In this document: one piece after another, positions 42,881 to 62,468 of the stretch | Layout of the letters: every line of letters starts with the position of its first letter | Position numbering within the stretch: position 1 is the stretch's first letter | Source: Oscillospiraceae bacterium | GTDB taxonomy: Bacteria; Bacillota; Clostridia; Oscillospirales; Ruminococcaceae | Reading direction: 5' to 3' | Assembly (NCBI GenBank): GCA_031551485.1 | Contig: JAVBNO010000019.1 | Coordinates: forward strand, 7,574-71,573 | DNA: 64,000 nucleotides | Notes under the pieces: model-generated | Told to the model about the DNA's origin: nothing | The model's database searches: none | Seen by the model: the letters and a program-made list of their open reading frames with translations, nothing else | Translations under genes and position numbers: made by a program

Positions 42881-44032
42881 GTGAAACATAATTCCCGCAA
42901 CATCGTAACAATATCTTTGCTGTCAATCCCACTTTCCGCGGGAGTCGCTTTAGTGCCCGTGTTGTCCAACATTGCCGCCGCTTTTCCGAATCAAAAAGAA
43001 TCCATGCAGCTGCTGCTCACCATGCCATCTTTATTTATGATGTTTTCGTCCCTGCTCACCAATACATTCGCTCAGAAGAGTTCATTAAAATTAATTGTGA
43101 TCATAAGCATTTCAATGATTGCTTTTGCGGGTTTATCTCCCTACTGGATCATCGGTTTTACTTATTTGTTATTTTCCCGCGGCCTGATGGGAATAGGGCT
43201 GGGACTGCTTCATACAGCAATTGTAAGTTTGCCAGCACTTTATTTTAATGACAGTCAAACGCGGGATCATGCCGTCGGCATTCAGTCCGCTTTTGTGTGC
43301 GCCGGGGCAATACTATTTCATCTTTTAAGTGGTATCCTTGCAAAATATAACTGGAGATATGTTTTTTTAGTCCAGTTTTTAAATGTCATTCCTTTGCTGG
43401 CGGCCATTTTTTTAATGCCGAAAACAGCAAACGATAGAAAGACAGAATCAAAGCATCAGAGAATATTTGTCAAACACGCCATACCTATAGTCGGGATTAC
43501 TTTTATTGGCATTGTACTCACCTGCACTTATCCTTTAAATCTATCGTTGTTTGTTGAAAAGCAGGGTTTGGGTGATTCACAATTTGTAGGTCTGCTGACG
43601 AGTATCAACTCCGCCATTGGTTTTTTCATTGGCTTGATTTTCGGTAAAGTATACGCAAAAGTGAGAGAGTATACTTTGTCCCTTGGATTTATATTATCGG
43701 CGGTTGCTTTGCTGATTGTTGCCTTCTTACCCAATCCAGCCATGTTATTGTTGGGCAGTATTTGTTTTGGCATAGGCACAAGTTTTATATCGCCGTCCCT
43801 ATATTCAATATTGTATAAACGGGTAAAACCGGAGGAAGTCGTTTCGTCTGTCGCAATGCTGGCGATAGCGGGCAACGTGTCCCAATTTATTTCACCCTTT
43901 GTTATCAATCCCATCGCAAAAATCATCGATGGTACCAGTGCAGAGGGTACAAGGTTTGTTGTTGCAGGTGCTGCCATATTTCTTTTGGCCATTTTTCTCT
44001 ATTGGCAAAACCATAAAAAGGCAGGCATATAA
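42881..44032 (+). CDS. MFS transporter (about 12 TM)
   Basis: 383-aa polytopic protein, markedly more AT-rich than the surrounding genes. GTG start after AAAAGAGGG. Confidence 0.75.
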   Translation: MKHNSRNIVTISLLSIPLSAGVALVPVLSNIAAAFPNQKESMQLLLTMPSLFMMFSSLLTNTFAQKSSLKLIVIISISMIAFAGLSPYWIIGFTYLLFSRGLMGIGLGLLHTAIVSLPALYFNDSQTRDHAVGIQSAFVCAGAILFHLLSGILAKYNWRYVFLVQFLNVIPLLAAIFLMPKTANDRKTESKHQRIFVKHAIPIVGITFIGIVLTCTYPLNLSLFVEKQGLGDSQFVGLLTSINSAIGFFIGLIFGKVYAKVREYTLSLGFILSAVALLIVAFLPNPAMLLLGSICFGIGTSFISPSLYSILYKRVKPEEVVSSVAMLAIAGNVSQFISPFVINPIAKIIDGTSAEGTRFVVAGAAIFLLAIFLYWQNHKKAGI

Positions 44033-44076
44033 TATACAAAGCGATTGGGCAAGGTGAAAATAACTTTCGGCCGATA

Positions 44077-44111
44077 TAAAAGAAGAGACTCCCTAAGGAG
44101 TCTCTTCTTTT
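44077..44111. terminator. Bidirectional intrinsic terminator
   Basis: Perfect stem AAAAGAAGAGACTCC / GGAGTCTCTTCTTTT between convergent genes. It overlaps the carbamate kinase stop codon. Confidence 0.85.
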
Positions 44112-45048
44112 ATCGTGCGCAGAACAGAGTGCCGGCGGTGCCTTGCAAGGCGGCGGAGGCCTCCTCCAGGGCGCCGATGATGGCCACTTTTTCTGCTTGG
44201 TCTTCCACAAAATTGACACAGGCCTCCACTTTGGGCAGCATGCTGCCGGGGGCGAAATGGCCTTCGGCAATGTACCGGCGGGCCTCGTCGACATTGACGC
44301 GGTCCAGCGTGCGCTGGAGCGGCGTGCCCCAGTGGATGGCCACCTTGGGCACTGCCGTCAGAAGAAAGAGGCAGTCGGCGTCTATGGTTTGGGCCAGCCG
44401 GGCCGCGGTCAGGTCTTTGTCAATGACGGCAGCCACCGGCGCAAGGCTTTGGCCTTCCCGGCAGACAGGAATGCCGCCGCCCCCGCCCGCAATGACCGTA
44501 TATCCCTGGTTCATCAGGGCTTTCAGGATGTCTTTTTCCACAATATCGACGGGGAGGGGGGAGGGCACAACCCGGCGATACCCCCGTCCCGCATCGTCCA
44601 CCATCGACCAGCTCATGGTGCGGGCCAGCTCGTCGCTTTCTTCTTTTGTATAGTAGCGGCCGATAGGTTTGGTGGGATTTTGAAAAGCGGGGTCGGTTTT
44701 GTCGACAACCACCTGGGTGACTACAGTCGCAAACTTGGCGTCCAGGTGTTGGGCGGCGGCTTCCTCATACAGGCTTTTTTGAATATGAAAGCCCATATAC
44801 CCCTGGCTCATGGCGCCGCATTCGGCCAGGGGCATGGCAGGGGTGCCGATGCCGGCGCGATAGGCGTAATCCATGGCCATATACAAAGCGCCAACCTGGG
44901 GGCCGTTGCCGTGCACGATCACAAGGGTGTGGCCCTCTTTCATCATTTGCACCACCGGAACCACCAACCCCTTCAGCAGCCGGAGCTGCTCTTCAGGCGA
45001 AGTACCCAGGGCATTGCCGCCAATGGCAATCACAACTTTAGACAACAC
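44110..45048 (-). CDS. arcC: Carbamate kinase
   Basis: VVIAIGGNALG, VIVHGNGPQVG and VIAGGGGGIPV motifs. GTG or TTG start at about 45045-45048 after GGAGGTGA, overlapping the upstream stop. Confidence 0.85.
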   Translation of the reverse strand: MLSKVVIAIGGNALGTSPEEQLRLLKGLVVPVVQMMKEGHTLVIVHGNGPQVGALYMAMDYAYRAGIGTPAMPLAECGAMSQGYMGFHIQKSLYEEAAAQHLDAKFATVVTQVVVDKTDPAFQNPTKPIGRYYTKEESDELARTMSWSMVDDAGRGYRRVVPSPLPVDIVEKDILKALMNQGYTVIAGGGGGIPVCREGQSLAPVAAVIDKDLTAARLAQTIDADCLFLLTAVPKVAIHWGTPLQRTLDRVNVDEARRYIAEGHFAPGSMLPKVEACVNFVEDQAEKVAIIGALEEASAALQGTAGTLFCAR

Positions 45049-46456
45049 CCTCACCTCCGGTGGCTGTGTGCGCTTCGGACAATGCTGCCAGCGCTTTCTC
45101 AAAGCATTCTGCGGGTGGGTTCACCAGACCGGCGCCCACCTGGCCAATGCCAGGCTTTTTGTGGGCGATGCCGGTATTAATGATAGGCAATACGCCGGTG
45201 GCAATCACTTTGCGCACATCAATGCCAATGGGACTGCCGCGAAAATCCAGCGGCGGAACCGAGTAAGCATTGTTTTCACCGGTCGTGATTTGATACATAG
45301 AAGTGGTGTAGGCATAGGCGTCGGAAACCGTGCCGCCCACAAATTGGACGATAGCGGGGGAGGCCGCCATCGAAAAGCCGCCAATGCCCATTGTTTCGGT
45401 GATGGCGCTGTCGCCAATGTCGGGGTTGCAGTCGTCGTCAGAAAAGCCGGGGAATAAAAGCCCCCGCACCATCTGGGCCGGGCCGGTAAACCATTTGTCG
45501 GGCAAGCCGCTGATGCGCAGGCCAAATTCCACGCCGTTGCGGGCCATGGCGGTAACCAATGTGGAACCTGCAATGCCGTTGGCTGTATCAAGGGCACATT
45601 TGCAGGCTGCCATGGAAAGGTTGAGGAAGTAATGTTCGTTGGCGGCGATAAAAGTCAATGTGGCGGCCGCGGCGTCCCGGTCTTCATCGGCCATCAGGCG
45701 GCCAGCCCATTCCCGCAGCAAAAGGGCAGTGGCCGCTTTGTTGCGGTTGTGGCATTCGTCACCCATATGCAGCGCCTGGGCCGTCATGGTTTTGAGCTCG
45801 ATGGGGCGGCCCTTTAAAATACGCTTAAGGGTGGGGGCAATTGTATTTTGGATTTTTACCAGCCGCTCGAGCACTTCTGCATCGTTGGCGCCGTAACGCA
45901 ACACTTTGCCCAACCCCTCGTTAATGGTGGCAAAAGAACGGCCTGTTCCGGCGGCGTCCTCTACCACATGTACCGGCATAGAGGCCGAAATGATACCGGC
46001 CATCGGCCCGACAGCCCCGAACTCGTGGCAAGGGGCGAAGCGGATTTTGCCGGACAACGCCAGCGTATGCGCTTCCGCGGTATCTTTGGCCAGCCCTTCA
46101 TAGACCAAAGCGCCCATGACAGCGCCCTGCATGGCGCCGCACATATCGGCGTAGGCAATGGGGGGGCCGGCATGCAGAATTGTCTCTTTGGTCATGCCGG
46201 GAATGACGTCACCGGCTGTGACCACATCGACCAGCAGGGGATTGGCCCCTAATATATTGCTTAGGGCTTTTTGGTTTGCTTTTTCCACGGCGTCACTGTC
46301 TAATTGGCCAAGCATGGCCAAAAGACGCAGGTCGCCCCCCGCGGGGGGTGTCCACTGTAGCTGGATGGCATTGGCCCCCTGGGCCAGCATATCATCATAA
46401 AAGGTAGGCACGCCGACATTGATGGCGTGAAGCGGTTCTGCAAACAGATGGTTCAT
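45038..46456 (-). CDS. DUF1116-like protein (YlbE-like, FdrA-associated)
   Basis: ATGA overlap with the fdrA stop. The assignment rests mainly on the conserved fdrA-ylbE-(ylbF)-carbamate kinase synteny and on length (~470 aa). Confidence 0.6.
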   Translation of the reverse strand: MNHLFAEPLHAINVGVPTFYDDMLAQGANAIQLQWTPPAGGDLRLLAMLGQLDSDAVEKANQKALSNILGANPLLVDVVTAGDVIPGMTKETILHAGPPIAYADMCGAMQGAVMGALVYEGLAKDTAEAHTLALSGKIRFAPCHEFGAVGPMAGIISASMPVHVVEDAAGTGRSFATINEGLGKVLRYGANDAEVLERLVKIQNTIAPTLKRILKGRPIELKTMTAQALHMGDECHNRNKAATALLLREWAGRLMADEDRDAAAATLTFIAANEHYFLNLSMAACKCALDTANGIAGSTLVTAMARNGVEFGLRISGLPDKWFTGPAQMVRGLLFPGFSDDDCNPDIGDSAITETMGIGGFSMAASPAIVQFVGGTVSDAYAYTTSMYQITTGENNAYSVPPLDFRGSPIGIDVRKVIATGVLPIINTGIAHKKPGIGQVGAGLVNPPAECFEKALAALSEAHTATGGEGVV

Positions 46457-48000
46457 CCTTGCGCCCTCCCTGCCGCAACGGCTACGGCCATGTTGACCGC
46501 CTGCCAGTTGCTTTCTGCCACCATGACGCCCAGCTCTTGTAATTTTTGCACTTGGCCGGCCCAATTTTGGGGGTCGCCCCGGGTGCCCAGCACATAGCCG
46601 ATCAGGGCAAGGCGGCGGCCGGCTGCTTTGGCAATTTCCTGCGCTTTGCGAATGGCGTCTGCTGTGGCGCCAACGGGGTCTTCGTGGGAGCCATAGCCCA
46701 ATTCAAAATCCAGCAGCAAGACCGCGGTTTCCTCGTCTTCGGCCTCTTTGACAAGGCGGCCCAGCCGCACGGTGGGGTCGATCATGGGGTGGGCGCGGCC
46801 GGCGGTGAATATATCGTCGCCCAAATCGACAATGGCATGTTTTTCACTGTGCATCGCGTCTTTCAGCCGATACTCCGGCTTTTTGCTGATGTTGCTGTAA
46901 ACGGGGGCATTCAGCCAGTTGCGCATGATGTGTTCGGCTTCGGCCGCCAGCGTGCCGCCGCAATACAGCGCCCGGATATATTTTTGTGTGGGCGCCAGCG
47001 CCAAAGCAGCCGCTTTCAGCGCCTCTTCGTCCATCCGTTCGCCGGTGTTGACCGCGGTGCCGGTGGCGCTTTTCACCGCCAGCTCAGCGGCGTGGGCCAG
47101 GCTGGAAGCAAAAAGGATATTGTCGTGATTTTCGTCATGGTCGCCTACAAAACAGACGACAACCTTTTTGGGTATCTCTTGGGCGCAGGCAAGAATGCGG
47201 CTGCGCACTTCGGGATAAGGCGGCTTGGAAATAATGACAATGACATTCGTCTTCTCATCCTCGCCAAGCAGCTTGAGGCCGTCCAACATCATCAGGCCGC
47301 CCACATCGGCGGAAAGGTCGCGGCCGCCCACGCCAATGGCCTGGGAAATGCCGCCGCCTAAGCGGTCGATGAGGGTAGACACTTCCTGAAGACCGGTGCC
47401 CGCCGCCGCCACAAGGCCAATGTCGCCTCGCCCCACCACATTGGCAAAGCACAGGCCGACGCCGCCAATGATGGCGGTGCCGCAGTCGGGCCCCATTATC
47501 AGCAGGCCTTTTTCGTGGGCATATTGCTTAAGGCGGATTTCCTCTTCCAAGGATACATTGTCGGAAAACAGCATGACATGCAGCCCGGCTTTCAGAGCTT
47601 CCATGGCTTCGTGGGCTGCAAACTGCCCGGCAGTGGAGATGACCGCCATTTGGGTTTGGGGGTTGGCGCGGGCCGCTGCTCCAATGGTTTTGTACTGGGT
47701 GGCGGCGGATTTGGCGCCGACATCCGCTTTGCGCTGCAGCAGGGCAAACGCTTGCTGAACAGCGCTTTCGCAAAGGGCGTCGTCGGCCGCCTGTATGGCG
47801 ACCAGCAGATCGTTGCCGCCTGCCTCTTCCGCCTGGGGCGTAAGCATGCCCACTCCGGCCAGCAGTTCTTTGTTCATGGGGGTGGCCATGGAGACAATGG
47901 CTTGCTGAACCCCTTCCAGCGCCAGCAGCTTTTTGGAAAGCATCATTAAAGAGACAGAGTCATGATAGCTGTTTTTCTTGATGGTTACAATTTGGGCCAA
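46453..48000 (-). CDS. fdrA: FdrA-family protein (succinyl-CoA-synthetase-alpha-like CoA-binding/ligase fold)
   Basis: Motifs KKNSYHDSVSLMMLSKKL, GPDCGTAIIGGVGLCFANVV and GLVAAAGTGLQEV…GVGGRDL. A TTG start at 48000 after GAGGTGA is preferred; the ATG at 48114 lacks a ribosome-binding site. Confidence 0.8.
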   Translation of the reverse strand: MAQIVTIKKNSYHDSVSLMMLSKKLLALEGVQQAIVSMATPMNKELLAGVGMLTPQAEEAGGNDLLVAIQAADDALCESAVQQAFALLQRKADVGAKSAATQYKTIGAAARANPQTQMAVISTAGQFAAHEAMEALKAGLHVMLFSDNVSLEEEIRLKQYAHEKGLLIMGPDCGTAIIGGVGLCFANVVGRGDIGLVAAAGTGLQEVSTLIDRLGGGISQAIGVGGRDLSADVGGLMMLDGLKLLGEDEKTNVIVIISKPPYPEVRSRILACAQEIPKKVVVCFVGDHDENHDNILFASSLAHAAELAVKSATGTAVNTGERMDEEALKAAALALAPTQKYIRALYCGGTLAAEAEHIMRNWLNAPVYSNISKKPEYRLKDAMHSEKHAIVDLGDDIFTAGRAHPMIDPTVRLGRLVKEAEDEETAVLLLDFELGYGSHEDPVGATADAIRKAQEIAKAAGRRLALIGYVLGTRGDPQNWAGQVQKLQELGVMVAESNWQAVNMAVAVAAGRAQG

Positions 48001-48159
48001 GTTGTTCACCTCGTAACGTTTACCGATTGCTGTGGGCAAGCTCCCTTTTAGGGAGGTGGGTCTGGCAGCGGCCGAAAGCCGTTGCCAGACCGCGTGTTTG
48101 GGATGTAGCATCATAAAAGAAAATGGTTGAAAATAATCATGCGGGGTGTTGCAATTGCC

Positions 48160-49749
48160 CTATTCTTCGGTCAGCACGTTTTCCTCTTTGCGATAGATGG
48201 ACATCAGGAAGAGAACGACGGCCATGCCCACGTAACCAAGCCAAACCTGAGGCGACATGTTGATGCCGAAGGAGGAAGAATGGATGATGCCGAAGAAGGA
48301 GAGAGCGGCGCAGATGACGGCGTAGATGGAGGCGCGTTTGTAGTTTCTATCCAAGATGTAGATGGCAATGGCCGCCAGCATCATAGCGATAAGAATGTCG
48401 CCCTGGCCCAACCGCAGCCAACCCAGGAAGGGCACGCCGTTTTGGGACAGAAGGGCGTTGCTGACCACAACAGAACCGGGGCCGCCGTTCAGAAGAGAAA
48501 CGGACACCGCCTGGCCGGCCTCGGCCAGCGCCGCGTTAATGGCGCCCACAGCCGAGTTTACTTTCAGGGCTACAATGCTGCCGATAAAAGGCATAAAGGA
48601 AAAGATAATGGCGGGGTAGTGGTGCTTTTTCGCCGTTTGGAAGGCCTGGGTGCCAATCACGATGCCGATATAAACCAAAATCGGCAACAGGGCGACCAGC
48701 GGAATGACGGCGGAAACCAGGCGAAGCAGGCCGGTAAAGGCAAGAATGATAATGGCGATACCGGTGAGCAGCGCATAGCCAATGCGGGCGCCGGTGGCTT
48801 TCCAGCCGGGATGGCCGATGTAAATGATGGTCGGGAACGGGCTGCCCAGCAGGGAACCGATAATGGTCATGGCAGCGGGAACGGCCATCGCTTTGGCGAC
48901 CGGATATTTTTCACCGGCAGCGTCGGCACTTTCCAGGTTATCAAGGCTTTCTAAAAAGTCGTAAATGGCAAGAGGGATGGCGGCGGGCAGGAAGGGGGCG
49001 ATGACGGAGAAACCTTTGCCCAGCAGGCCGACTGCCAGATAGGGCAGCGGAATGTTAAACGCCTGAACAGCAGAAGCAACGGCGTCGGGCTTCAGGTAGC
49101 CGGTGGCCCAGGCAATAATGGTGCCGATGAGAATGGCGAAAGCGCCGGCGGGCATGCCAAAGGGCATTTTTTTGCCGGAAAGCCAGCCCACCAACAGAAT
49201 GGCCAGGCAGACGAGGCCGATGTAAGGCACCGTGAAAACTTCGCCGATGGGGTTACCGGAAATGAGGGTGATGGCCAAACCGGCCAGGGCGCCCAACATG
49301 GCGGAGCGGGGGATGTATTTTTTGAGGGTAGGGCCGACAAAAGCGCCTATCATCATCACAATGCCCTGAATCAGGTTCCAGGCAATGCCGGCGGCCCAGG
49401 CGGTAAGCCAATCCTGGGTGGCGATGTAAACCGGCAGGATGACGCCCAAAGCGACCGCAAAATAGTGGGGTACGCTTAAGCCGTAAGGCATGGCCGTCAC
49501 ATCGCTACGGTTTTCGCGCTTGGAAAGGCTTTTGGCCATAATGGCCAGGATGATGTTGCCCACGCCAATGGAAATGGCGACACCGGGCACAATTTTGCCG
49601 TAAACCATGTCGGCAGGCATGGCGATGGCGAATGCCAGCAGGCCAATGGCCGTTAAGAAATTGGCGAGGGAGTTGGAAAACAGACCGAAAAATCCGTTGA
49701 TGTCGCCGGAGACCCACCAGGGGGTGCCGGCAGTCGATTTACTACTCAT
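48160..49749 (-). CDS. Polytopic permease, NCS2-superfamily-like (purine/nucleobase-type), paralog A
   Basis: The ATG at 49749 follows GAGGAGG. About 13 TM segments. Shares the motifs DINGFFGLF.N..AN, P.G.SVPH and IYIGHPGWK..GAR.GY with paralog B. Confidence 0.6.
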   Translation of the reverse strand: MSSKSTAGTPWWVSGDINGFFGLFSNSLANFLTAIGLLAFAIAMPADMVYGKIVPGVAISIGVGNIILAIMAKSLSKRENRSDVTAMPYGLSVPHYFAVALGVILPVYIATQDWLTAWAAGIAWNLIQGIVMMIGAFVGPTLKKYIPRSAMLGALAGLAITLISGNPIGEVFTVPYIGLVCLAILLVGWLSGKKMPFGMPAGAFAILIGTIIAWATGYLKPDAVASAVQAFNIPLPYLAVGLLGKGFSVIAPFLPAAIPLAIYDFLESLDNLESADAAGEKYPVAKAMAVPAAMTIIGSLLGSPFPTIIYIGHPGWKATGARIGYALLTGIAIIILAFTGLLRLVSAVIPLVALLPILVYIGIVIGTQAFQTAKKHHYPAIIFSFMPFIGSIVALKVNSAVGAINAALAEAGQAVSVSLLNGGPGSVVVSNALLSQNGVPFLGWLRLGQGDILIAMMLAAIAIYILDRNYKRASIYAVICAALSFFGIIHSSSFGINMSPQVWLGYVGMAVVLFLMSIYRKEENVLTEE

Positions 49750-49856
49750 CGTGTTAATTTCCTCCTCGAAATATGATTTTTGGATACAAAAAACCAGGCC
49801 CTGGCTTATTGCCACATTGACCAGGGCGGTTTGACAAAGAAAAGAGGGGGCGCTGT

Positions 49857-50528
49857 TTATTTCTGCATGGCTTCCATTACTTTGGCCGAAGTGGACACCC
49901 AACCGAAGATGCCGCCCTGCTGGTATACCATACGGGCCGCGTCGTCGTGGTCCTTTTTATCGAAAGCGGCGCAGCAGTCGTCCAGCATCAAACACTCAAA
50001 GCCCCTGTCATTGGCTTCGCGGAGCGTTGTGGTGACGCAGACATGGGTGGTGACGCCGCAAAAAAGCATGTGCGTAATACCTTTGTTGCGCAAAATCAGC
50101 TCAAGGTCAGTGGAATAAAAGGCGCCTTTGCCAGGTTTGTCAATGATGGGCTCGCCGTCAATGGGATACAGTTCTTCCACAATGTCGTGGCCCAGTTCGC
50201 CCCGCACCAAAATGCGTCCCATGGGGCCGCAGTCGCCAATGCCGGCACCCTGGCGTTTGCCACGGGCCAGTTTGTTGGGCGGGCAATCGCTTAAATCGGG
50301 GCGGTGGCCTTCGCGGGTATGAAGAATGAACATGCCTTTTTCGCGGGCAAAGTGCAACATCTTTTGGACAACGGGAATGATGCTGGCCGTGGGGGTAATG
50401 TCGTTGCCCAGCTTTTCGCCAAAGCCGCCGGGGGCGCAAAAATCGCGCTGCATGTCAATGAGGATGAGGGCGGTGGTCTCCAGCGGGAATTCAAACGCGT
50501 AGGGTTCGGCATCAACAGAGTATTTCAT
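49857..50528 (-). CDS. Isochorismatase-family cysteine hydrolase (RutB / N-carbamoyl-amide amidohydrolase-like)
   Basis: ALILIDMQRDFCAPGG (Asp), conserved Lys region, FCGVTTHVCVTTTLREANDRG (catalytic Cys). Confidence 0.8.
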   Translation of the reverse strand: MKYSVDAEPYAFEFPLETTALILIDMQRDFCAPGGFGEKLGNDITPTASIIPVVQKMLHFAREKGMFILHTREGHRPDLSDCPPNKLARGKRQGAGIGDCGPMGRILVRGELGHDIVEELYPIDGEPIIDKPGKGAFYSTDLELILRNKGITHMLFCGVTTHVCVTTTLREANDRGFECLMLDDCCAAFDKKDHDDAARMVYQQGGIFGWVSTSAKVMEAMQK

Positions 50529-50558
50529 AGGGGGGCGCTCCTCTCGTCAATATAAAAT

Positions 50559-52076
50559 TTAAAGGGATTCTTCTATGTATTCCTGTTTAAAGAACAGCAA
50601 AATCAAAGCAGCCAACAGCAGGTAGCCAATGCTGACCTCCAGGGCGGCCGCAAAACCGACCTGGGCCGCGTGAATGATGCCAAAAAAGGATAATGCAGCG
50701 GCAATGCAGGAGGTGACAATGGCTTGTTTTTGCTTGCGCTCGATTAAAAATACGGTAATGGTGGCCCAAATGATGCCTACCACAATGGCGCCGCTGCCCA
50801 ACGTTGTCAGCCCGCCGAAGTAAATGCCGTTGGCGGCAAATGTTTCGGGGGCAATGGCGCCGGGGTTGCTCCCCGCCGAGACGACCGCGTTGGACACCAT
50901 CGTTTTACACCAGTCCGCCAAAGAGGGTAAAATGGCCATCACAACGGCCGGCGTGTGGGATTTTGGGATATTTTCGAAAGCCTGGGAGCCGATGACGACA
51001 CCGATATAAATTAAAATGGGCAGCAGGGCCGCAATGGGAATGGCGCTTAGCAGCACCGATTCAATGCCCAAAAGGGTCAGCAACAGAACACCCAAACCGG
51101 TCATCCAGCCGTAACCCAGCCGCGCACCGACGCTTTTCCAGCCGGGATGTCCAATATAAACAGCAGTGGGTACCGGATTGCCCAGACAGCCGCCAATGAA
51201 GCTGGTGATGCCGTCAAAGAGCATAATTTGGGTTGTATTGTATTTGTCGCCCGCCACTTCGGCACTTTCCAGGTTATCCATGGTTTCAATAAAATTGTAA
51301 ATGCCGAAGGGAATAGCGATAAGCAAATAGGGCAGGACGACGGTAAAATGTTGCAGCGTAACGCCCAAGGTGACGCCCGGCAACGCAAAACCAACGCTGG
51401 AGAAAGATTGCACCAGCGCCGATGCGCTCATCCGGCCGCTACCCCAACCAATGGCTGTGCCTACCACAATGGCCACCAGGCCCGCGGGCATGCCCCAGGG
51501 CATTTTCTTTTTGGCAATCCAGCCCATCAGCAGTACGCCCAGGCAGACGATGGTGATGGCCGGCATCCCCCAGGCCTGCGCCGCCGAATTGGTCATGATG
51601 TAGGGGATGGAGACGCCCGCCAAAGAACCCAGCAGCGCGGCGCGGGGTACAAATTCACGCACTTTTTTGCCAATGACCGCACCCAGGCACTCAATCACCG
51701 CTTCGATCAGGCACCAAGCCAAGCCCGCGTACCAGGCAATCATGGGGTCACCTGTTTGCAGTTTAATGGGCAGCATGACGCCAAATACAATGATAAACAT
51801 ATGGGGTACGCTGATGCCTGTGGGCAGCGCGGTGACAGTATCTCGCTTTTCTACTTTGGACAGCTTATACCCAGCATAAAAATAGCACAGACAGCTGATA
51901 AAAATAGCGATGCCCACGCCGGGTAAAATCCGCCGGAAAACAATGTCGGCCGGGAGCTCGATCACATACAAAAGCAAGCTTGTCAGGACAAGAATGTTTG
52001 CGATGTTGTTGGTAAAGAGCCCAAAAAAACCATTGATGTCAGATTTTTGCCAAACTTTAACCTTTTCTGTTTGCAT
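50559..52076 (-). CDS. Polytopic permease, NCS2-superfamily-like, paralog B
   Basis: GGAGGTGGG ribosome-binding site. Same motif set as paralog A. It is the first gene of the minus-strand operon. Confidence 0.6.
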   Translation of the reverse strand: MQTEKVKVWQKSDINGFFGLFTNNIANILVLTSLLLYVIELPADIVFRRILPGVGIAIFISCLCYFYAGYKLSKVEKRDTVTALPTGISVPHMFIIVFGVMLPIKLQTGDPMIAWYAGLAWCLIEAVIECLGAVIGKKVREFVPRAALLGSLAGVSIPYIMTNSAAQAWGMPAITIVCLGVLLMGWIAKKKMPWGMPAGLVAIVVGTAIGWGSGRMSASALVQSFSSVGFALPGVTLGVTLQHFTVVLPYLLIAIPFGIYNFIETMDNLESAEVAGDKYNTTQIMLFDGITSFIGGCLGNPVPTAVYIGHPGWKSVGARLGYGWMTGLGVLLLTLLGIESVLLSAIPIAALLPILIYIGVVIGSQAFENIPKSHTPAVVMAILPSLADWCKTMVSNAVVSAGSNPGAIAPETFAANGIYFGGLTTLGSGAIVVGIIWATITVFLIERKQKQAIVTSCIAAALSFFGIIHAAQVGFAAALEVSIGYLLLAALILLFFKQEYIEESL

Positions 52077-52402
52077 TTACCCACCTCCAAGTCAAACACG
52101 CTTTATGATTGGCCATATATTCAGGAACCGGAAAGGGCATTGCCTGTGGCAAAGGCGCCGCCGGTGTCCGTTCCCTGCCTACGAAAGTATTATCAAATCG
52201 CTTCAAAGCGACAACATCCTCACTGTTATGTTAACAAATAAAAACTAAAACGACATCGTGTTCAAGACATAAGAAACTGCAGTGTAATTTGTCATCCAGT
52301 GACAAATGGGTTGAATTTTGATCAAAGATTTACGGCGTTTTTAGTGGAATAGTGCCATATGGTGTGATATAATAACAAAAACATCTGCAAAAGGGAGGGG
52401 GA

Positions 52403-54004
52403 ATGGGGTTGACGCTGGACGAATTGCTGACCATTGGGCCGTTAAAAGGCGCCATAGTGCTGACCGGCGGGCAAAGTCTGCACTGCGAAGTGGGAGACAT
52501 TGCCGTCATGGAAGTGCCGGATATTGAGGACTACGTCAAAAAAGACGATTTTTTGCTGACCACCTTTTTCCCCATTCATAAAGATCCCCAGCGGCTGGAA
52601 AGAATCATCCCTGCTCTCCACCGCTTGGGGCTTTGCGGCATCGGCATCAAATCCAACCGCTATTTGGGCCGAATACCCGACAAAATGCTGGAACAAGCCA
52701 ACGAGCTGGGTTTTCCCATTGTGGCAGTGCCCGAAAATGTCAATTTTTCCGATGTGATCACCAACTATTTGCGGGACAAATTGCGTATACGCAATAGCGA
52801 GCTGGAGTATCGGGACAGTCTGCACAGCATTACAATGGAAATGCTGATGCAGGGTTACGGTTTTCAGGAACTGGCGGATACCATCCAAAAGACAATGGGC
52901 CGCAACGTTTTGCTATTGTCCAGCGACGGGCTGTCCCTTACGCCCAACGAGGGAGAGCTGATTGGTGAAGAGGACTTTGCGCTGTTGACCCAAGCAGTGG
53001 GTGCGCTCGCGCCCGGCAACCATATACAGTCGGTTTTTGTAGGCCATATCGAGTGGTTCATCTTTCCGGTTGTCCACGGTTTTCACACAACCGGGTACAT
53101 TTTACTGGAGGGTGTAGGCGAACCATTGCGAGAGGCCGACCGCATTACTATTGAGCAGTATGCCGCTGTCTTCACCGTCATCCGGCAAAAAAACCTGTCC
53201 ATTGTGGAATTGGAAAAGCGTTATTCCAACGAGTTTGCCTACGACCTGCTGCTGCGGGAACCGCCAACACTGGCGACGGCGGTGAACCGGGCCCGAACCA
53301 TCGGCTGGCATCTGTCTTTTCCCTCTGTGGTTGTGGTGGTGGAGATGCCGGTTCGCGGACAGGACGACTACAGCTATCGCGACCAGTTTGCCATTCGGCT
53401 TAGGCACGAAGCGCTGCTGCGATACGGGGTGGGGCACGAGCAGTTCTTCATCGCCAACATCGGCGACGAAATCACCCTTTTGCTCAACCGCGAAGCCGTC
53501 AAAAAACAAAGCGAACTTGTGGATTTAATTTACCAGTGCGCCAACCGGAACGCCGAGCAACAATATTTTATCGGGGTTTCCAACCCGGTGTCGCAGATGA
53601 ACTTGTTTCAGCGCCGGTTTCACGAAGGCCAAAAGGCCATTCAAATTGCCAGGCTGATTGGGCACACGCGGCCGCTGTGTTTTCGGGACGCGGGTATTTA
53701 CCGGGTGTTGCATCACCAGCATATCCGGGATGAGCTGCTTTCTTTTTGCAAAGATACCATCGGCGCGGTCATCCAATACGACAACAGTCACAATTCCAAT
53801 TATTTAGAAACGATGGAAACGATTTTTACCTGCGAAGGCAATTACAAAAAAGCGGCTGCCGCGCTGTACTTGCACTACAACACCCTGCGGTACCGGGTGC
53901 GGGTGATTGCCGAACTGTTGGGCATCGAACCGGCTTCACTGCATTTTCGACAGGACATCTATCTGGCGGTAAAAGCATACAAATTGTTTGACGAGGCTGT
54001 ATAG
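52403..54004 (+). CDS. pucR: PucR-family transcriptional regulator (purine catabolism regulator-like)
   Basis: 533 aa with a PucR-type N-terminal sensor domain and a C-terminal HTH (AAAALYLHYNTLRYRVRVIAELLG). Divergent from the catabolic operon. Confidence 0.8.
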   Translation: MGLTLDELLTIGPLKGAIVLTGGQSLHCEVGDIAVMEVPDIEDYVKKDDFLLTTFFPIHKDPQRLERIIPALHRLGLCGIGIKSNRYLGRIPDKMLEQANELGFPIVAVPENVNFSDVITNYLRDKLRIRNSELEYRDSLHSITMEMLMQGYGFQELADTIQKTMGRNVLLLSSDGLSLTPNEGELIGEEDFALLTQAVGALAPGNHIQSVFVGHIEWFIFPVVHGFHTTGYILLEGVGEPLREADRITIEQYAAVFTVIRQKNLSIVELEKRYSNEFAYDLLLREPPTLATAVNRARTIGWHLSFPSVVVVVEMPVRGQDDYSYRDQFAIRLRHEALLRYGVGHEQFFIANIGDEITLLLNREAVKKQSELVDLIYQCANRNAEQQYFIGVSNPVSQMNLFQRRFHEGQKAIQIARLIGHTRPLCFRDAGIYRVLHHQHIRDELLSFCKDTIGAVIQYDNSHNSNYLETMETIFTCEGNYKKAAAALYLHYNTLRYRVRVIAELLGIEPASLHFRQDIYLAVKAYKLFDEAV

Positions 54005-54051
54005 AGTGGTACAATCGACAGGCAGAAAACAGTCTGAAAGGGGGAGGGGCT

Positions 54052-54963
54052 ATGATTTTTCCGGCGCTTTCATGCCATGATCTTTTGAAAGAGCGTTTGG
54101 CAGGCGGCCCCAAAACCGGCGTGGTGCACAGCGTTTTTCGACATGTTGTAAACTTGTATTTTGCAGAAGACGATTTCGAAGATTTTTTGGTCTGCCTGGC
54201 GGCCAAAAGTGTGGACGACGCCCCTTTCACCCTGCGGGCCGACTTTGGCGGCTACAACGACTCTTTGGATGCGCTGGTGGCAAAGGGGATTGCGGTTGCT
54301 GCCAGCCCAATGGGCATTGAGTTGGGCCGCCATGTCTTCGTCGACTGGCGGCAGGCCGTTTTATGGCATCCGGTTTTACCGGTGCTGAACACCGGCTCGC
54401 CGACAGTTGGATCCAATCTTTCGGCGCTGGGGCACGCCCTTGCAGCAGCGGGCGAAAAGTGCGGGTTTGTGGGCCTTTTTGGCAAGCAACCCCTTGACCT
54501 CTTCCAGCAGGCGTTGGCCGACCGCAGCCGGGCGCTGCTGGGGGCGCTTGTGGCCCGAAACCCAAAAGACATTGCCGAAGCGGCGTTCCCATTGCTGGGG
54601 CTGGGGCCGGGGCTTACCCCGTCGGGGGACGACTTTTTGTTGGGGCTTATGGCTTGTCTGTCCTTGGCGGGACATCCTGATCAAGAGGTACTGCCTGTGT
54701 TACAATCCATCGTAACACAAGGCAAAGCGCAAACCAATCTCATCAGCTACGCGGCTCTTTTCCATGCCGCCCAAGGGCAGGTGCGGGCGTGTATCTGCGC
54801 GCTGTTGCAGGCGCTTGCGGGGGCGGAGCCGGCGGATGTGTTGCCGGGCGCCATCCGGCAGGTCATGGAAATTGGCGGTACAAGCGGATGTGACATCTGC
54901 GCCGGTATTTACGCCGGTTTGGCGCTGGCGCTGCCCGGCGGCGGATGGTTAGGCGGGCTGTGA
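54052..54963 (+). CDS. DUF2877-like protein (YlbF-like, FdrA-associated)
   Basis: About 300 aa and Ala/Gly/Leu-rich, with the SVFRHVVNL motif near the N-terminus. Assignment is by context with fdrA/DUF1116. Confidence 0.55.
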   Translation: MIFPALSCHDLLKERLAGGPKTGVVHSVFRHVVNLYFAEDDFEDFLVCLAAKSVDDAPFTLRADFGGYNDSLDALVAKGIAVAASPMGIELGRHVFVDWRQAVLWHPVLPVLNTGSPTVGSNLSALGHALAAAGEKCGFVGLFGKQPLDLFQQALADRSRALLGALVARNPKDIAEAAFPLLGLGPGLTPSGDDFLLGLMACLSLAGHPDQEVLPVLQSIVTQGKAQTNLISYAALFHAAQGQVRACICALLQALAGAEPADVLPGAIRQVMEIGGTSGCDICAGIYAGLALALPGGGWLGGL

Positions 54964-55037
54964 AGGCGGAATAACCGGGGGATACCTATCGTCTAACCTA
55001 TCATCACAACTGATTATACAAAGAATTTTGCCTACAC

Positions 55038-55076
55038 AAAAAGCCCGCCGGCCTCATTATGCCGGCGGACTTTTTA
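55038..55076. terminator. Bidirectional intrinsic terminator
   Basis: A-run, stem GCCCGCCGGC / GCCGGCGGAC, then TTTTT. Confidence 0.75.
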
Positions 55077-55110
55077 TATGGGGGTTTTATGGGGATATCG
55101 AAATGCAGCA

Positions 55111-55465
55111 TTATACGAGTCCGCCGTTGCTTTCGGCGACTTTTTGGTACCAGTAGAAACTTTTTTTCGGATACCGCTTCAGGCCGTCTTCATAATCGAC
55201 ATAAACAAGGCCGTAACGTTTTTGGTGACCGTTAATCCAGCTGTACAGATCCATGGTGGACCAGACGAAAAAGCCGCGCAAATCCACGCCTTTTTGAAGG
55301 GCTTCTTTCATCGCCACCACCGACTCCCGTAAAAAGTCAATGCGGATGTCATCGTTGACGGTGCCGTTCTCCAGAGTTTCCGCCACGCCAATGCCGTTTT
55401 CGGTGATGTAAATGGGAATGTCACCATAGCCGTGTATTCGGGCGAGGCCAGCACGAAGCGGTTAA
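55111..55465 (-). pseudogene. GH1 (beta-glucosidase / 6-phospho-beta-glucosidase) C-terminal fragment
   Basis: Encodes …YGDIPIYITENGIG (nucleophile motif) … FFVWSTMDLYSWINGHQKRYGLVYVDY… to a stop at 55111. About 350 N-terminal codons are missing. The upstream limit is approximate (+/-20 nt). Confidence 0.8.
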
Positions 55466-55943
55466 ACGCTTTGCGAAAGTCGCGCTCATCCCCCTCTAGC
55501 TTGATGCCGTAGTGGGACTTGGACTGAAGCGTTAAATGATAACCACGCAAATATTCCCGCAGCTCGGGCAGGTCGTTGACCAATGTGGCACGACTGACAT
55601 CGATAAGTTCTGATATGGTTTGCAGGGGGATGTAGTCGGTTTGCTGAAGCAAAAAATATAAGATAAGGGGGATACGATGGGTTTTATCACCCGCGTTTTC
55701 AGCCATGCCGGCGTCCAGTTGGCGGGCGAAAGCGGTATATTTGCCCTCGTCGGTAATTTGCAGGCTGTAGCCCTTGTTGCGAATGGTAATCACATCAAAT
55801 CCGTTTTTGATAGCGTCATTGCGAATGGATTTGATGTGCTCCCTGACCATGCGTTCCGATATTTTTAAATGCGCCGTTAACTGTTCCAGCGAAACGGACG
55901 GTTCCTGCACCAGCAATGCCAAAATATCACTTTCCCTGATCAT
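55466..55943 (-). pseudogene. LicR/MtlR-like (HTH-Mga, PRD-family) transcriptional activator, N-terminal fragment only
   Basis: GGGGGGAG ribosome-binding site and an ATG at 55943. Two N-terminal HTH/Mga-like domains (ILALLVQEPSVSLEQLTAHLKISERMVREHI…; LQTISELIDVSRATLVNDLPELREYL). The reading frame then runs out-of-frame into the GH1 fragment. No PRD or EII domains are present. Confidence 0.75.
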
Positions 55944-56362
55944 GCTCCCCCCTTTTCGCCTTTTCCGCCGCATTTTCTTTCCCCATTATACTGCCACCCA
56001 TCCAGCATTAACAGCATAGAAATTGCCAACTTCGTTGGCAGCATTTTGACAATAGTGACATGGCGGGGGATGGGCGCGGTTTATGGGTAAAGAAGGGACG
56101 CCTGCCCGGGCCGCGGGGAGAAGCAGCGCCTGGGCGGGGAACATATCGCACATATCTTGGCCACGATTTTGTGTGAGTTTGTCCATTTTGAAGAAAGCTT
56201 TGCGACGAAAAATGTGGTACAATAGTCCGTGGGATCAAAATGGCGTTCCCGCTTTTTGGCCGGTGGGCCATTCAAATTTTAGAAAGGGCCGCTTGATTCC
56301 CGTTTTCCTTTATTGTATTATTAGTTTAAACAGATAAAAATTGATTGCATGGAGGGTGCGCT

Positions 56363-56860
56363 TTGAAACGTGTGGCGGTCATCATGGGCAGCGACAGCGA
56401 CTGGCCGGTGGTGGAAAAAGCAGTAAAGCAACTGAAAGCTTTGAATATTCCGGTGGAGGCGCATGTGATGAGCGCCCACCGCACGCCGGCGGAGGCGGCG
56501 GCATTTGCCGAAGGCGCCAAAGGGGCCGGCGTCGGCGTCGTGATTGCGGCGGCGGGCAAGGCGGCGCATTTGGCGGGGGTTTTGGCGGGGCACACCACCC
56601 TGCCGGTCATCGGCATTCCCATTCAAAGTACGGCGCTGGACGGGTTGGACGCGCTGTTGGCCACTGTGCAGATGCCGGGGGGTATTCCGGTGGCGACCGT
56701 TGCCATTGACGGGGCGCAAAACGCCGCTTTGCTGGCGGCGCAGATTTTGGCGGTTGAGGACAATACGCTGGCACAGAAATTGGCCGATATGAAAGAAAAA
56801 ATGCGGCAGGATGTGCTGGCCAAAGATAAAGCTTTAAATGAAAAAATGGGGGAATTGTAA
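56363..56860 (+). CDS. purE: N5-carboxyaminoimidazole ribonucleotide mutase (class I PurE signature)
   Basis: Motifs [18 protein letters not shown] and [18 protein letters not shown] start at 56363, 6 nt after GGAGGG, is preferred to the TTG at 56345. Confidence 0.85.
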
Positions 56861-57570
56861 TGGAAAAGCGGGCGCAGCTTTACGAAGGCAAGGCCAAAAA
56901 GGTGTTCGCCACCGATGATCCGAATTTGTGCATTGTGGATTACAAGGACGACGCAACAGCTTTTAACGGCGAGAAAAAGGGAACCATTGCGGGCAAGGGC
57001 GTTGTGAACAACCGGGTAACCAACCATATGATGAAGCTGCTGGAAGCGCAGGGAATTCCCACCCATTTTGTGAAGGAGCTGTCGGAGCGGGAGACGCTTG
57101 TCAAAAAGGTGACCATTGTTCCGCTGGAGGTCATTGTGCGCAACATTGCGGCGGGATCGTTGGCCAAGCGGTTGGGCCTTGCCGAAGGGGTGCGGATGGG
57201 CGAGACTGTGCTGGAATACTGTTACAAGGACGACGCACTGGGCGACCCGATGGTGAATGAATACCACATTGCCGCCATGGGCTGGGCCACCAAGGAAGAG
57301 GTGGCGCTGATTGCCGACTATTCGCTGCGTGTCAACGCATTTATGACATCCTATTTGAAGGATTTGGGCATTGAACTGATTGATTTTAAATTGGAATTTG
57401 GGAAGCTTCCGGACGGTACCATCGTTTTGGCCGATGAGATATCGCCGGATACTTGTCGTTTTTGGGATAGTAAGACGGGTGAAAAGCTGGATAAAGACCG
57501 CTTCCGCCGGGATATGGGTGGGGTTGAGGACGCCTACCGGGAAATTTTAAAACGATTGATGGGTGAGTAA
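56860..57570 (+). CDS. purC: SAICAR synthetase
   Basis: [18 protein letters not shown] and [12 protein letters not shown] motifs. TAATG overlap with purE. Confidence 0.95.
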
Positions 57571-58995
57571 ATGTTTGGTACAATTCACGAGGAATGCGGC
57601 GTATTTGGCATCTATGGTTCAGAACATGACGATGTTATTTCTGACACCTATCACGCGCTACACGCCCTGCAACATCGGGGGCAGGAAAGCTGTGGCATCG
57701 CTGTCAACAATGACGGCGTTATTTCGGGCTTTAAGGATTTGGGGCTGGTGGACGATGTATTTACACCGGCGCGGCTGCACCGGATGGAAAACGGTACAAT
57801 GGCGCTGGGCCATTGCCGCTATGGCACCACCGGCAACCAATCCCGCAACAATGCCCAACCCCTTGTGGTGCAGCATGTAAAGGGTGGGCTGGCCCTTTGC
57901 CACAACGGCAACCTGACCAACGCGGCCGAACTGCGGGAGGAAATGGAACTGGGCGGCGCGATCTTTCACACCACATCGGACAGTGAAGTAATCGCTTACA
58001 CCATCACCCGAGAGCGGTTAACGGCCCCCACCATTCAGGCAGCGGTATCCAGCGCCATGGACAAGCTGCGGGGCGCTTACTCCATGGTGATCATGAGCCC
58101 CAAAAAGCTGATTGCGGCCCGGGATCCCTTTGGCTTTCGGCCCTTGTGCTTGGGCAAGCGGGGGGAGAGTTATATCTTCGCCAGCGAAACCTGTGTGCTG
58201 GATATTTTGGAGGCCGATTTTGTCTGTGACATCCGCCCGGGGGAAATTGTCACCATTTCGGAAAAAGGTATTGAGAGGGATACCTCCCATTGCCAGGAAG
58301 AAAGCCGCCTTTGCGTATTTGAATTTATTTATTTCGCCCGCCCCGACTCCGTGATTGAACAGTCCAGTGTACATCTGGCACGGCAAAGGGCAGGCGCTTT
58401 TTTGGCCCTGACACATCCGGTGCAGGCCGACATTGTCATCGGCGTGCCCGACTCCGGCCTGGACGCGGCACTGGGTTATGCCAAACAAAGCGGCATCCCC
58501 TATGGCGTGGGTTTTATCAAGAATAAATATATTGGCCGGACCTTCATTAAGCCGACCCAGCGGGAACGGGAAAGCGCTTTGCGCATTAAGCTCAATACCG
58601 TCGCCGCCTCCATTAAGGGCAAGCGGGTCGTATTGGTGGACGACAGCATTGTACGGGGGACGACTTCGGCTCGCATTGTCAAACTGGTGCGGGAAGCGGG
58701 CGCGACCGAGGTGCATATGCGGCTGAGCGCGCCGCCCTTTTTGCATCCCTGCTGGTTTGGCACCGACATCGATTCCCGGGAGCATTTGATTGCCCACAAC
58801 CACAGCGTTGAGGAAATTCGCAAAATTATTGATGTGGACAGCATCGGCTATCTGCCCATTGACGCGCTGGACAAGCTGGCGGAAAACAGTCACTGCGGTT
58901 TTTGCACCGCCTGCTTTACAGGCGAGTATCCCGTGACGCCGCCGGAAAAGACCCTCAATTCCAAGTTTGACAGAGGTATTCATGATGAGCCATAA
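57571..58995 (+). CDS. purF: Amidophosphoribosyltransferase
   Basis: N-terminal ECGVFG (Cys nucleophile), [21 protein letters not shown] and a C-terminal Cys cluster. Confidence 0.95.
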
Positions 58996-61318: not shown

Positions 61319-61343
61319 AAAATCCTGCAATGGGGGTAGTGAT

Positions 61344-62459: not shown

Positions 62460-62468
62460 GGTGGATAG

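Follow-up and report, generated by a model that had tools for sequence, protein, structure and literature searches.

The window analysed here is a 64,000-nucleotide stretch of the genome of an Oscillospiraceae bacterium (contig JAVBNO010000019.1, positions 7,574 to 71,573), and between its positions 44110 and 54963 lies an eight-gene locus for two permeases, an isochorismatase-family cysteine hydrolase, the proteins AllF, AllG and AllH, a carbamate kinase and a PucR-family regulator. We propose that this operon is a self-contained catabolic route by which an imported oligo-ureide, most likely triuret (carbonyldiurea) and possibly biuret or a close analogue, would be converted to carbamoyl phosphate and further to ATP. 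This reading is based on sequence comparison and we give it a probability of about 0.45. The sequences establish what the genes are, that the operon is conserved, that the hydrolase has TrtA-like residues and that the classical downstream enzymes are missing; the substrate, an action of AllHFG on carboxybiuret or allophanate and ATP yield as the purpose are inferred from this. The operon itself is a real, widely conserved single unit. The locus is a Firmicute variant, with two permeases that no Pfam model recognises, PucR and a relocated allH, of an undescribed but widespread cassette of TrtA-type hydrolase, AllHFG and carbamate kinase, and the cassette belongs to a known kind, that of carbamoyl-phosphate-yielding ureide catabolism. 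A first-pass annotation of the same DNA had outlined uptake, amide or ureide hydrolysis, carbamoyl transfer and ATP formation for an imported ureido compound. This outline agrees with all the findings, and the details that had to be corrected are given below.

In the proposed mechanism, one or both of the permeases, which have 7+7 transmembrane (TM) segments, would import triuret, biuret or a close analogue. The TrtA-type hydrolase would take off one terminal ammonia to leave an N-carboxy-ureide, that is, 1-carboxybiuret from triuret and allophanate from biuret. AllH-AllF-AllG, a paralogue of the oxamic transcarbamylase of E. coli, would then phosphorolyse the terminal carbamoyl group of the N-carboxy anion to give carbamoyl phosphate and the next shorter N-carboxy compound, and a possible second round would end in carbamate. 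From carbamoyl phosphate and ADP the carbamate kinase would produce ATP, NH3 and CO2, with PucR turning the operon on. What oxalurate (H2N-CO-NH-CO-COO-), allophanate (H2N-CO-NH-COO-) and 1-carboxybiuret (H2N-CO-NH-CO-NH-COO-) have in common is an N-acylurea structure with a terminal carboxylate. The arginine deiminase pathway is an energy-yielding analogue of such a route.

The identities of the genes are established by profile matches, and all three subunit families of oxamic transcarbamylase score over their cut-offs. AllF (FdrA, ~515 amino acids (aa), 46453–48000, minus strand) reaches 515 bits with NF004760 (cut-off 433) and carries PF02629 and PF00549, the succinyl-CoA-synthetase-alpha-like CoA_binding and Ligase_CoA domains. 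AllG (472 aa, 45038–46456, minus strand) scores 296 bits with PF06545 and matches PDB entry 3clq with E = 2.8e-131, while AllH (303 aa, 54052–54963, plus strand) scores 95 bits with PF11392 (cut-off 25). The earlier assignments of the last two proteins to DUF1116 and DUF2877 are borne out by these scores; the present Pfam names of the two domains are AllG and AllH. The partner expected of such an enzyme, a catabolic carbamate kinase, is encoded in the same operon (~311 aa, 44110–45045, minus strand, AllK/ArcC family). It scores 342 bits with NF009007 (cut-off 266) and 355 bits, just under the cut-off of 358, with TIGR00746, and a single tblastn match makes it the sole copy in the genome. The block of FdrA, YlbE and YlbF had been suspected of encoding a genetically orphan carbamoyltransferase step, which is no longer orphan since 2024, when Kim and Kim purified AllF-AllG-AllH from E. 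coli as oxamic transcarbamylase (PMC11326118). YbcF of E. coli is the catabolic carbamate kinase AllK (PMC9843812), and AllFGH with AllK phosphorolyse oxalurate and then form ATP (PMC11326118, PMC9843812).

The likeness to E. coli allFGHK lies in the same three subunit families and a catabolic carbamate kinase encoded in one operon, and in the expected chemistry, in which phosphorolysis of an N-acylurea would give carbamoyl phosphate and then ATP. Identities to the K-12 proteins are 40% for AllF, 45% for AllG and 39% for the kinase (against AllK), and for AllH 31% over the C-terminal 108 aa only. The boundary between AllF and AllG is shifted: the C-terminal ~50 aa of E. coli AllF (509–554) form the N-terminus of AllG here, aligning with residues 43–88 of the long AllG open reading frame (ORF). 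The median lengths in relatives are ~517 aa for AllF and ~473 aa for AllG, the E. coli proteins having 555 and 419 aa, respectively. To judge from the alignment, this shift would fit a tight AllF-AllG complex. The gene order is F-G-H-K in E. coli, H-F-G-K in the cassette and F-G-K with H elsewhere in the window, and AllS/AllR regulate in E. coli where the cassette has PucR. Unlike E. coli allFGHK, the cassette has a TrtA-type hydrolase and two permeases built in, and the allantoin genes of E. coli (allECD, allB) have no counterpart in this locus or genome. The GHAG phosphohistidine loop of succinyl-CoA synthetase alpha was considered as a mechanistic lead for AllF and dropped, as AllF lacks it both here and in E. 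coli, and so do 85 of 86 homologues.

The hydrolase (223 aa, 49857–50528, minus strand) was assigned to the TrtA type by structure, profile and residue comparison. It is 56–60% identical to the solved TrtA and BiuH and matches PDB entries 6xix (TrtA) and 6azo (BiuH) with E = 2e-78 and 2.5e-78, respectively, RutB following at 7e-27. The RutB-like label first given to it has to be withdrawn, since it scores 111.5 bits with TIGR03614 against a cut-off of 378 and the RutB structures match far more weakly than TrtA and BiuH; the assignment as a ureidoacrylate amidohydrolase is thus rejected. It is not a typical BiuH either: it scores 307.7 bits with the BiuH equivalog NF050097, under the cut-off of 370, and has none of the BiuH-specific residues Y35, Y41, I157, D160, T187 and V205. 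The positions that discriminate TrtA from BiuH were taken from Tassoulas et al., in whose comparison the TrtA state is F35, N41, A134, E160, Y187 and I205 (PMC7948467). In TrtA numbering, the window hydrolase reads D24, F29, F35, N41, E72, K129, K132, A134, V157, T158, H160, C162, F187, Q202 and I205. The triad D24-K129-C162 and the V157-T158 cis-peptide pair are present, and all of the substrate-binding and catalytic residues (D24, F29, E72, K129, K132, C162, Q202) are retained. F35, N41, A134 and I205 are TrtA-like, while His at 160 and Phe at 187 match neither enzyme.

This TrtA-like signature is not peculiar to the window. Nearly all relatives of the hydrolase have the TrtA-type F35, N41, V157 and I205, and most have A134, so that by residue comparison the group appears as a TrtA-like clade of its own. 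In loci with two paralogues (L036, L070, L071, L073 and L075) the second copy has the complete BiuH signature; that of L075 passes the BiuH cut-off with 412.7 bits where its His160 neighbour fails with 272 bits. The pairs in L071 and L075 mirror the TrtA/BiuH pairs described earlier (PMC7948467). The clustering with biuH (and atzF or trtB) that marks trtA was not found in the window genome and occurs only in the variant loci L071, L075 and L080. Compared with the TrtA, TrtB, BiuH and AtzF pathway of Herbaspirillum sp. BH-1 and Rhizobium leguminosarum (PMC7948467, PMC5806882), the hydrolase, its triad and the V-T pair are alike, whereas His replaces Glu160 and Phe replaces Tyr187. TrtB, BiuH, AtzF and urease of that pathway are missing from the window genome, which has AllHFG and carbamate kinase downstream instead. 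The hosts differ as well, being anaerobic or fermentative Firmicutes and their relatives here and plant-associated Proteobacteria there.

Conservation of the operon was followed through a hydrolase search with one genome per species, which yielded 80 loci at 56–75% identity; their gene content was obtained by tblastn and ORF clustering. The hydrolase was counted in 69 of the 80 loci, the permease in 66 (117 copies), PucR, AllF and AllG in 52 each, carbamate kinase in 50 and AllH in 46, and each of the remaining families in at most 18, the commonest being an upp-like gene and then cyanuric acid hydrolase (6 loci). These counts are lower bounds, as the greedy ORF caller lost true genes to longer antisense ORFs; the carbamate kinase of the window and the hydrolase of L006, L022 and L043 were lost in this way and are present by tblastn. 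For AllH the count comes from clustering, tblastn at E = 1e-10 having missed it in all loci. Many of the loci without the full gene set are short contigs. The canonical order is a divergent PucR followed by permease, hydrolase, permease, AllH, AllF, AllG and kinase, and it recurs in ~50 of the 80 loci and in six bacterial groups. The combination had been called unusual at first; it is instead a widespread conserved cassette, and gene-neighbourhood mining, suggested at the same time, finds the set in dozens of unrelated genomes and therefore marks it as more than chance. The allH gene, which canonically lies in the interval between permease A and allF, stands behind pucR in the window, and the same relocation is seen in L005.

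Bacilli, Clostridia, Erysipelotrichia, Acholeplasmataceae, Eggerthellaceae, spirochaetes and Chloroflexota are among the carriers. They include Virgibacillus, Lysinibacillus, Exiguobacterium, Roseburia, Oscillibacter, Tissierella, Slackia and other Eggerthellaceae, Erysipelotrichaceae, Acholeplasmataceae, Brachyspira, Brevinema and members of the Chloroflexota. Cultured strains among them are Virgibacillus proomii N4, Lysinibacillus mangiferihumi M-GX18, Exiguobacterium sp. TNDT2, Tissierella creatinophila DSM 6911 and Slackia equolifaciens DSM 24851. The Acholeplasmataceae carriers have genomes of only 0.8–1 Mb, and by analogy the presence of the cassette in such wall-less bacteria would fit an energy-yielding role. 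In 18 loci (within L035–L060, mostly Acholeplasmataceae) an upp-like (uracil-phosphoribosyltransferase-like) gene of ~207 aa lies directly 3′ of the carbamate kinase or hydrolase gene, which could reflect lineage synteny or a pyrimidine link.

The enzymes that classically process the product of TrtA are absent from the window genome (2.18 Mb, 95.8% complete). Searches of it returned no second hydrolase paralogue (BiuH), no allophanate hydrolase or any other amidase-signature match, and no urease. Three of the 50 other carrier genomes, all Lachnospiraceae, have a true BiuH (47 do not), and an AtzF-like gene divided into amidase and AH_C parts is confined to these three; urease is present in two and absent from 48, and cyanuric acid hydrolase is present in six. 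The great majority of carriers are thus unable to use the textbook route from TrtA through BiuH to AtzF, and of the conserved partners only AllHFG and carbamate kinase could act on what the hydrolase produces. The allophanate-hydrolase model, which finds nothing in the window genome, matches 13 of 14 control genomes and exceeds its cut-off in one of these; the window organism may have no amidase-signature enzyme at all, GatA included.

The window genome likewise has no match to AllC, an AllD-type dehydrogenase or the Mo-domain of xanthine dehydrogenase, and its best allantoinase match (242 bits, cut-off 358) is probably dihydroorotase. In the 80 loci, no homologue of AllB, AllC, AllD, AllE, AllW or YbbY was found up to a distance of 10 kb. 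The link of oxamic transcarbamylase to oxalurate-making genes (allantoinase, AllC, AllE, AllD) is thus missing from both the genome and the 80 loci, and the detachment of the block from allantoin and xanthine dehydrogenase genes, which had been noticed within the window, holds throughout the window genome. Allantoin or purine-degradation genes lying just outside the window would have made this a standard cluster; none was found, and the 3′ flank encodes purine biosynthesis. On these searches the window genome has no endogenous source of oxalurate.

It could be argued that two separate pathways merely share the locus, the hydrolase scavenging nitrogen from triuret or biuret with spontaneous decay of the products, and AllHFGK handling oxalurate independently. 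Such a reading has a precedent in nitrifiers. Comammox Nitrospira and ammonia-oxidising archaea have biuH/trtA beside allFGHK and no upstream purine-degradation genes in the genome, and these clusters were read as biuret plus oxalurate pathways (PMC12625717). The nitrifier clusters resemble the present operon in the co-location of a BiuH/TrtA-family hydrolase with allFGHK; unlike it, they rely on transporters of the ABC (BmpA-NupABC) or CodB type and in many cases include AtzF or a gatA-like amidase, while here the genes are interleaved in a single operon with PucR and two permeases lacking a Pfam match. A second point in favour of two pathways comes from the Lachnospiraceae, where a complete hydrolytic set (TrtA-like, BiuH, AtzF) stands beside AllHFGK. 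Nevertheless, both halves are interleaved in one operon (P-B-P-H-F-G-K in the one-letter order of permease, hydrolase, permease, AllH, AllF, AllG and kinase) and have been kept together across six bacterial groups, even in genomes of only 0.8–1 Mb. Moreover, spontaneous decay would end in biuret or urea, unusable for the 47 of 50 carriers without BiuH and AtzF and the 48 of 50 without urease. Co-occurrence in the phylum of the window tells against separate pathways as well: in a sample of 401 genomes, AllG is found in 57 and the hydrolase (counted at E <= 1e-50) in seven, five of which also have AllG, with the two genes adjacent in three. We consider two independent pathways improbable.

The Lachnospiraceae/Roseburia loci L071, L075 and L080 hold a cassette of PucR, a Bmp-type ABC importer, a true BiuH, the TrtA-like hydrolase with His160, separate AH_C and amidase genes for an allophanate hydrolase, and then AllH-AllF-AllG-kinase. 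By their gene content, hydrolytic and putative phosphorolytic routes lie side by side in these loci.

A second line of evidence for a urea-chain substrate is the cyanuric acid hydrolase (AtzD family) that occurs inside or beside the cassette in six loci (L012, L018, L030, L031, L047 and L056). The linked AtzD passes the cyanuric acid amidohydrolase equivalog NF052395 with 543 bits (cut-off 360). In the clostridial loci L127, L131, L134, L151 and L153, AtzD directly adjoins AllG-AllF-AllH and there is no TrtA-like hydrolase; the L151 protein matches PF09663 and scores 568 bits with NF052395. TrtA and cyanuric acid hydrolase have a common product, 1-carboxybiuret (PMC7948467), and AtzD would on this gene context be a second feeder enzyme for the AllHFG carbamoyltransferase family. 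A 413-aa polytopic membrane protein with no Pfam or NCBIfam match (L031, 5433–6674; also L030, L047 and L056) always stands beside the cassette-linked AtzD and is a candidate transporter of a triazine- or pyrimidine-like precursor.

The phylogeny of AllG points in the same direction. In a quick maximum-likelihood tree of 92 sequences, whose branches were assessed by the Shimodaira–Hasegawa-like approximate likelihood ratio test (SH-aLRT) without bootstraps and whose relatives are not independent, the main hydrolase-linked clade comprises 47 rows including the window (SH-aLRT 93). The unlabelled rows within it are mostly loci where the ORF caller missed a hydrolase detected by tblastn. Hydrolase-linked and AtzD-linked sequences are sisters in two further places (SH-aLRT 99 each), and E. 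coli AllG lies far apart, on a branch of its own of length 1.45. The tree is supporting evidence, not proof. We suggest tentatively, and as less likely than not, that AllHFG-type enzymes are a family of phosphorolytic N-acylurea carbamoyltransferases with several substrate classes, of which the clade of the cassette would act on 1-carboxybiuret and/or allophanate. Under this scheme a molecule of triuret, or of cyanuric acid in carriers of AtzD, would be broken down fermentatively to NH3 and CO2 and yield at most two ATP, and neither BiuH, allophanate hydrolase nor urease would be needed.

The same logic might serve some other N-carbamoyl or acylurea substrate. A carbamoylated metabolite or a fragment of an oxidised purine would be candidates, as would a pyrimidine- or purine-derived ureide like ureidomalonate, and the His160 clade would then have a specificity unlike that of TrtA or BiuH. 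His160 and Phe187 set the clade apart from both characterised enzymes, which are themselves ~50% identical and yet exclusive in their substrates (PMC7948467). The PucR-type regulator, permeases remotely related to nucleobase carriers and the upp-like gene 3′ of the operon in the 18 loci would also suit such a substrate, as would the cytosine-deaminase-like amidohydrolase that accompanies AtzD in two loci. On the other hand, the neighbouring AtzD proteins score above the cut-off of the cyanuric acid hydrolase equivalog, a model that may not exclude barbiturase, and the true BiuH and AtzF of the variant loci point to the urea-chain series. The cassette holds no further conserved candidate for a feeder enzyme. 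A substrate outside the urea chain is, in our judgement, very doubtful.

Transport is represented by permease A (529 aa, 48160–49749, minus strand), of a 7+7-TM (UraA-fold) family without a Pfam model, and by permease B (505 aa, 50559–52076, minus strand), the first gene of the operon and a member of the same family. Neither has a Pfam or NCBIfam match even at E = 10, so that the PF00860 match expected of a nucleobase carrier is missing. Among 8000 candidates scored, 4374 are homologues of permease B with E <= 0.001, and none of the 120 homologues listed has a Pfam transporter domain; homologues bear the label "AGZA family xanthine/uracil permease-like" in a few sources. Nevertheless, a family profile of 22 members aligns with the Xan_ur_permease profile in hhalign with 94% probability and E = 1e-7. 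The AlphaFold model of permease B has a predicted local distance difference test score (pLDDT) of 84.9 and a predicted template modelling score (pTM) of 0.80, and Foldseek retrieves SLC26Dg, SVCT1, UraA, UapA and AZG1 at E values between 1e-8 and 1e-5, and BicA as well. The two proteins had been described as diverged paralogous permeases, and at ~40% mutual identity, with profile and fold both indicating transporters, that description stands. The profile and the model thus indicate genuine secondary transporters of an uncharacterised family. They share the 7+7 TM inverted repeat and a remote profile similarity to Xan_ur_permease with NCS2/AzgA and SLC26 carriers; unlike NCS2, the family, thousands of proteins strong, has no PF00860 match, and no characterised member was found. 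The modelled fold does not discriminate between nucleobase-like and anionic substrates. Both copies are retained in most of the related loci, which together with their divergence argues for different jobs of the two permeases.

The question then arises whether the operon is a plain oxalurate module. Oxalurate is a product of urate or parabanate oxidation. If it were imported, AllHFG would be a true oxamic transcarbamylase yielding carbamoyl phosphate and oxamate, the hydrolase would deamidate oxamate to oxalate or make oxalurate from an amide precursor, and the second permease would export the end product. The three subunits and the kinase are all present, oxalurate is what the only characterised AllFGH uses (PMC11326118), and the clade-specific His160 could bind a carboxylate. 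Two permeases would suit an import/export pair, and among the best structural matches of the modelled permease are SLC26 anion carriers, a group that includes oxalate transporters. But the hydrolase retains the full triuret/biuret binding set (D24, F29, F35, N41, E72, K132, Q202 and I205), and the oxalurate branch of E. coli works without any such enzyme. The partners in the variant loci, true BiuH, AtzF and cyanuric acid hydrolase, are enzymes of ureide chains and not of oxalate, and the AllG clade of the cassette is distant from E. coli AllG. We therefore regard an oxalurate module as unlikely.

The catabolism of triuret or a close analogue, which we prefer, is itself opposed by several observations. 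1-Carboxybiuret is chemically unstable, and its use would need a direct hand-over from enzyme to enzyme for that reason. Of 75 clade members, 65 have His at position 160, in place of the Glu of TrtA and the Asp of BiuH, and 62 have Phe at position 187, in place of Tyr and Thr, respectively. E160 of TrtA positions a water molecule that touches the far end of triuret (PMC7948467); with His in its place, the actual substrate could be unlike triuret at this end. The sole characterised member of the AllFGH family, as noted above, is an oxalurate enzyme. BiuH, split AtzF and AllHFGK occur together in three Lachnospiraceae loci, so AllHFG does not simply substitute for allophanate hydrolase. Of the 57 genomes with AllG in the phylum sample, 52 have no hydrolase, and AllHFG mostly accompanies xanthine-dehydrogenase-type genes in them. 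It is clear from this that the enzyme family also acts on other substrates.

The wider contexts of AllHFG were surveyed in 40 AllG loci of the phylum sample. The commonest (18 of 40, within L114–L150) is PucR-AllH-AllF-AllG followed by a cyclase/arylformamidase-family gene (PF04199); this context is uncharacterised and often adds carbamate kinase, xanthine-dehydrogenase-type Mo/FeS/FAD subunits, Xan_ur_permease and CN-hydrolase. Apart from the nitrifier co-location paper (PMC12625717), full-text literature searches turned up no publication placing carbamate kinase or carbamoyl phosphate in the same pathway as biuret or carboxybiuret.

The gene order and junctions of the locus proved as first described when examined with Pfam and NCBIfam and by inspection of the junctions. 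On the minus strand, permease B, the cysteine hydrolase, permease A, AllF, AllG and carbamate kinase are transcribed in this order towards a terminator, and the divergent plus-strand pair is pucR, then allH, then a terminator-like hairpin. Starts were refined by inspecting start codons and ribosome-binding sites, which shortened three ORFs. Permease A starts at ATG 49749 (not 49902) behind GAGGAGGAA, AllF at TTG 48000 (not 48114) behind GAGGTG, and AllG at ATG 46456. The allF stop and the allG start form an ATGA overlap (46453–46456), and the kinase gene, starting at TTG 45045 or GTG 45048 behind GGAGGTGAGG, overlaps the allG stop by 8–11 nt.

The end of the minus-strand operon is a terminator hairpin at 44077–44111, directly 3′ of the carbamate kinase stop, with a perfect 16-bp stem followed by UUUUAU (−25 kcal/mol, z = −6.75, matched by none of 200 shuffles). 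The hairpin between permease A and fdrA that the first-pass annotation had noticed is also real by folding: the intercistronic stem-loop at 48061–48090 (minus strand) has a 9+5 bp stem and no U-tract, and with a small neighbour it reaches −34.1 kcal/mol (z = −5.8), none of 200 shuffles folding equally well. It may plausibly serve in stabilising or processing the mRNA, or halt transcription in part. A sequence homologue was sought in relatives and none was found; the permease-allF junctions of L005, L011 and L072 also hold long hairpins, unrelated in sequence. In the gap between hydrolase and permease A, a hairpin with a T-run at 49791–49830 (minus strand; terminator-like site 49807–49791 with a TTTGTATCC tail, fold of the region 49755–49850 at z = −2.3) is a possible internal terminator or attenuator, a candidate for separating expression of the first two genes from the rest.

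The divergent control region between permease B and pucR (52077–52402) contains no recognisable riboswitch. An Rfam scan of 43800–56900 at E <= 1 gave no match, and with the leader at 52080–52215 folding at z = 0.16 relative to shuffles, a riboswitch or structured leader 5′ of permease B was rejected. The regulator (533 aa, 52403–54004, plus strand) has the N-terminal PucR domain (PF07905, 96 bits) and C-terminal HTH_30 (PF13556, 62 bits) that define the PucR family, and a PF17853 match of 40 bits. Behind allH, the terminator-like hairpin at 55045–55068 (plus strand) has 8 G-C pairs followed by ACTTTTTATA. The 5′ flank of the module holds an MFS gene and a giant surface-protein gene. Directly downstream, at 56860–63746 (plus strand), is a purine biosynthesis operon of purC, purF, purM, purN, an archaeal-type IMP cyclohydrolase, the AICARFT part of purH and purD. 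E. coli allFGHK likewise adjoins purine genes, purK-purE.

Triuret, biuret and cyanuric acid arise as impurities of fertiliser and feed, as residues of chlorine stabilisers and as products of urate oxidation. If the proposed route is correct, products of urea condensation and urate oxidation would be energy substrates for gut, sediment and tiny-genome wall-less bacteria, and triuret, biuret and cyanuric acid would have a second, energy-conserving route of breakdown in which a phosphorolytic step and carbamate kinase supplant the textbook BiuH, AtzF and urease. It would give the AllFGH enzyme family its first substrate other than oxalurate and thousands of unannotated permeases a role, and it would explain the recurrent BiuH/TrtA genes beside allFGHK in nitrifiers (PMC12625717).

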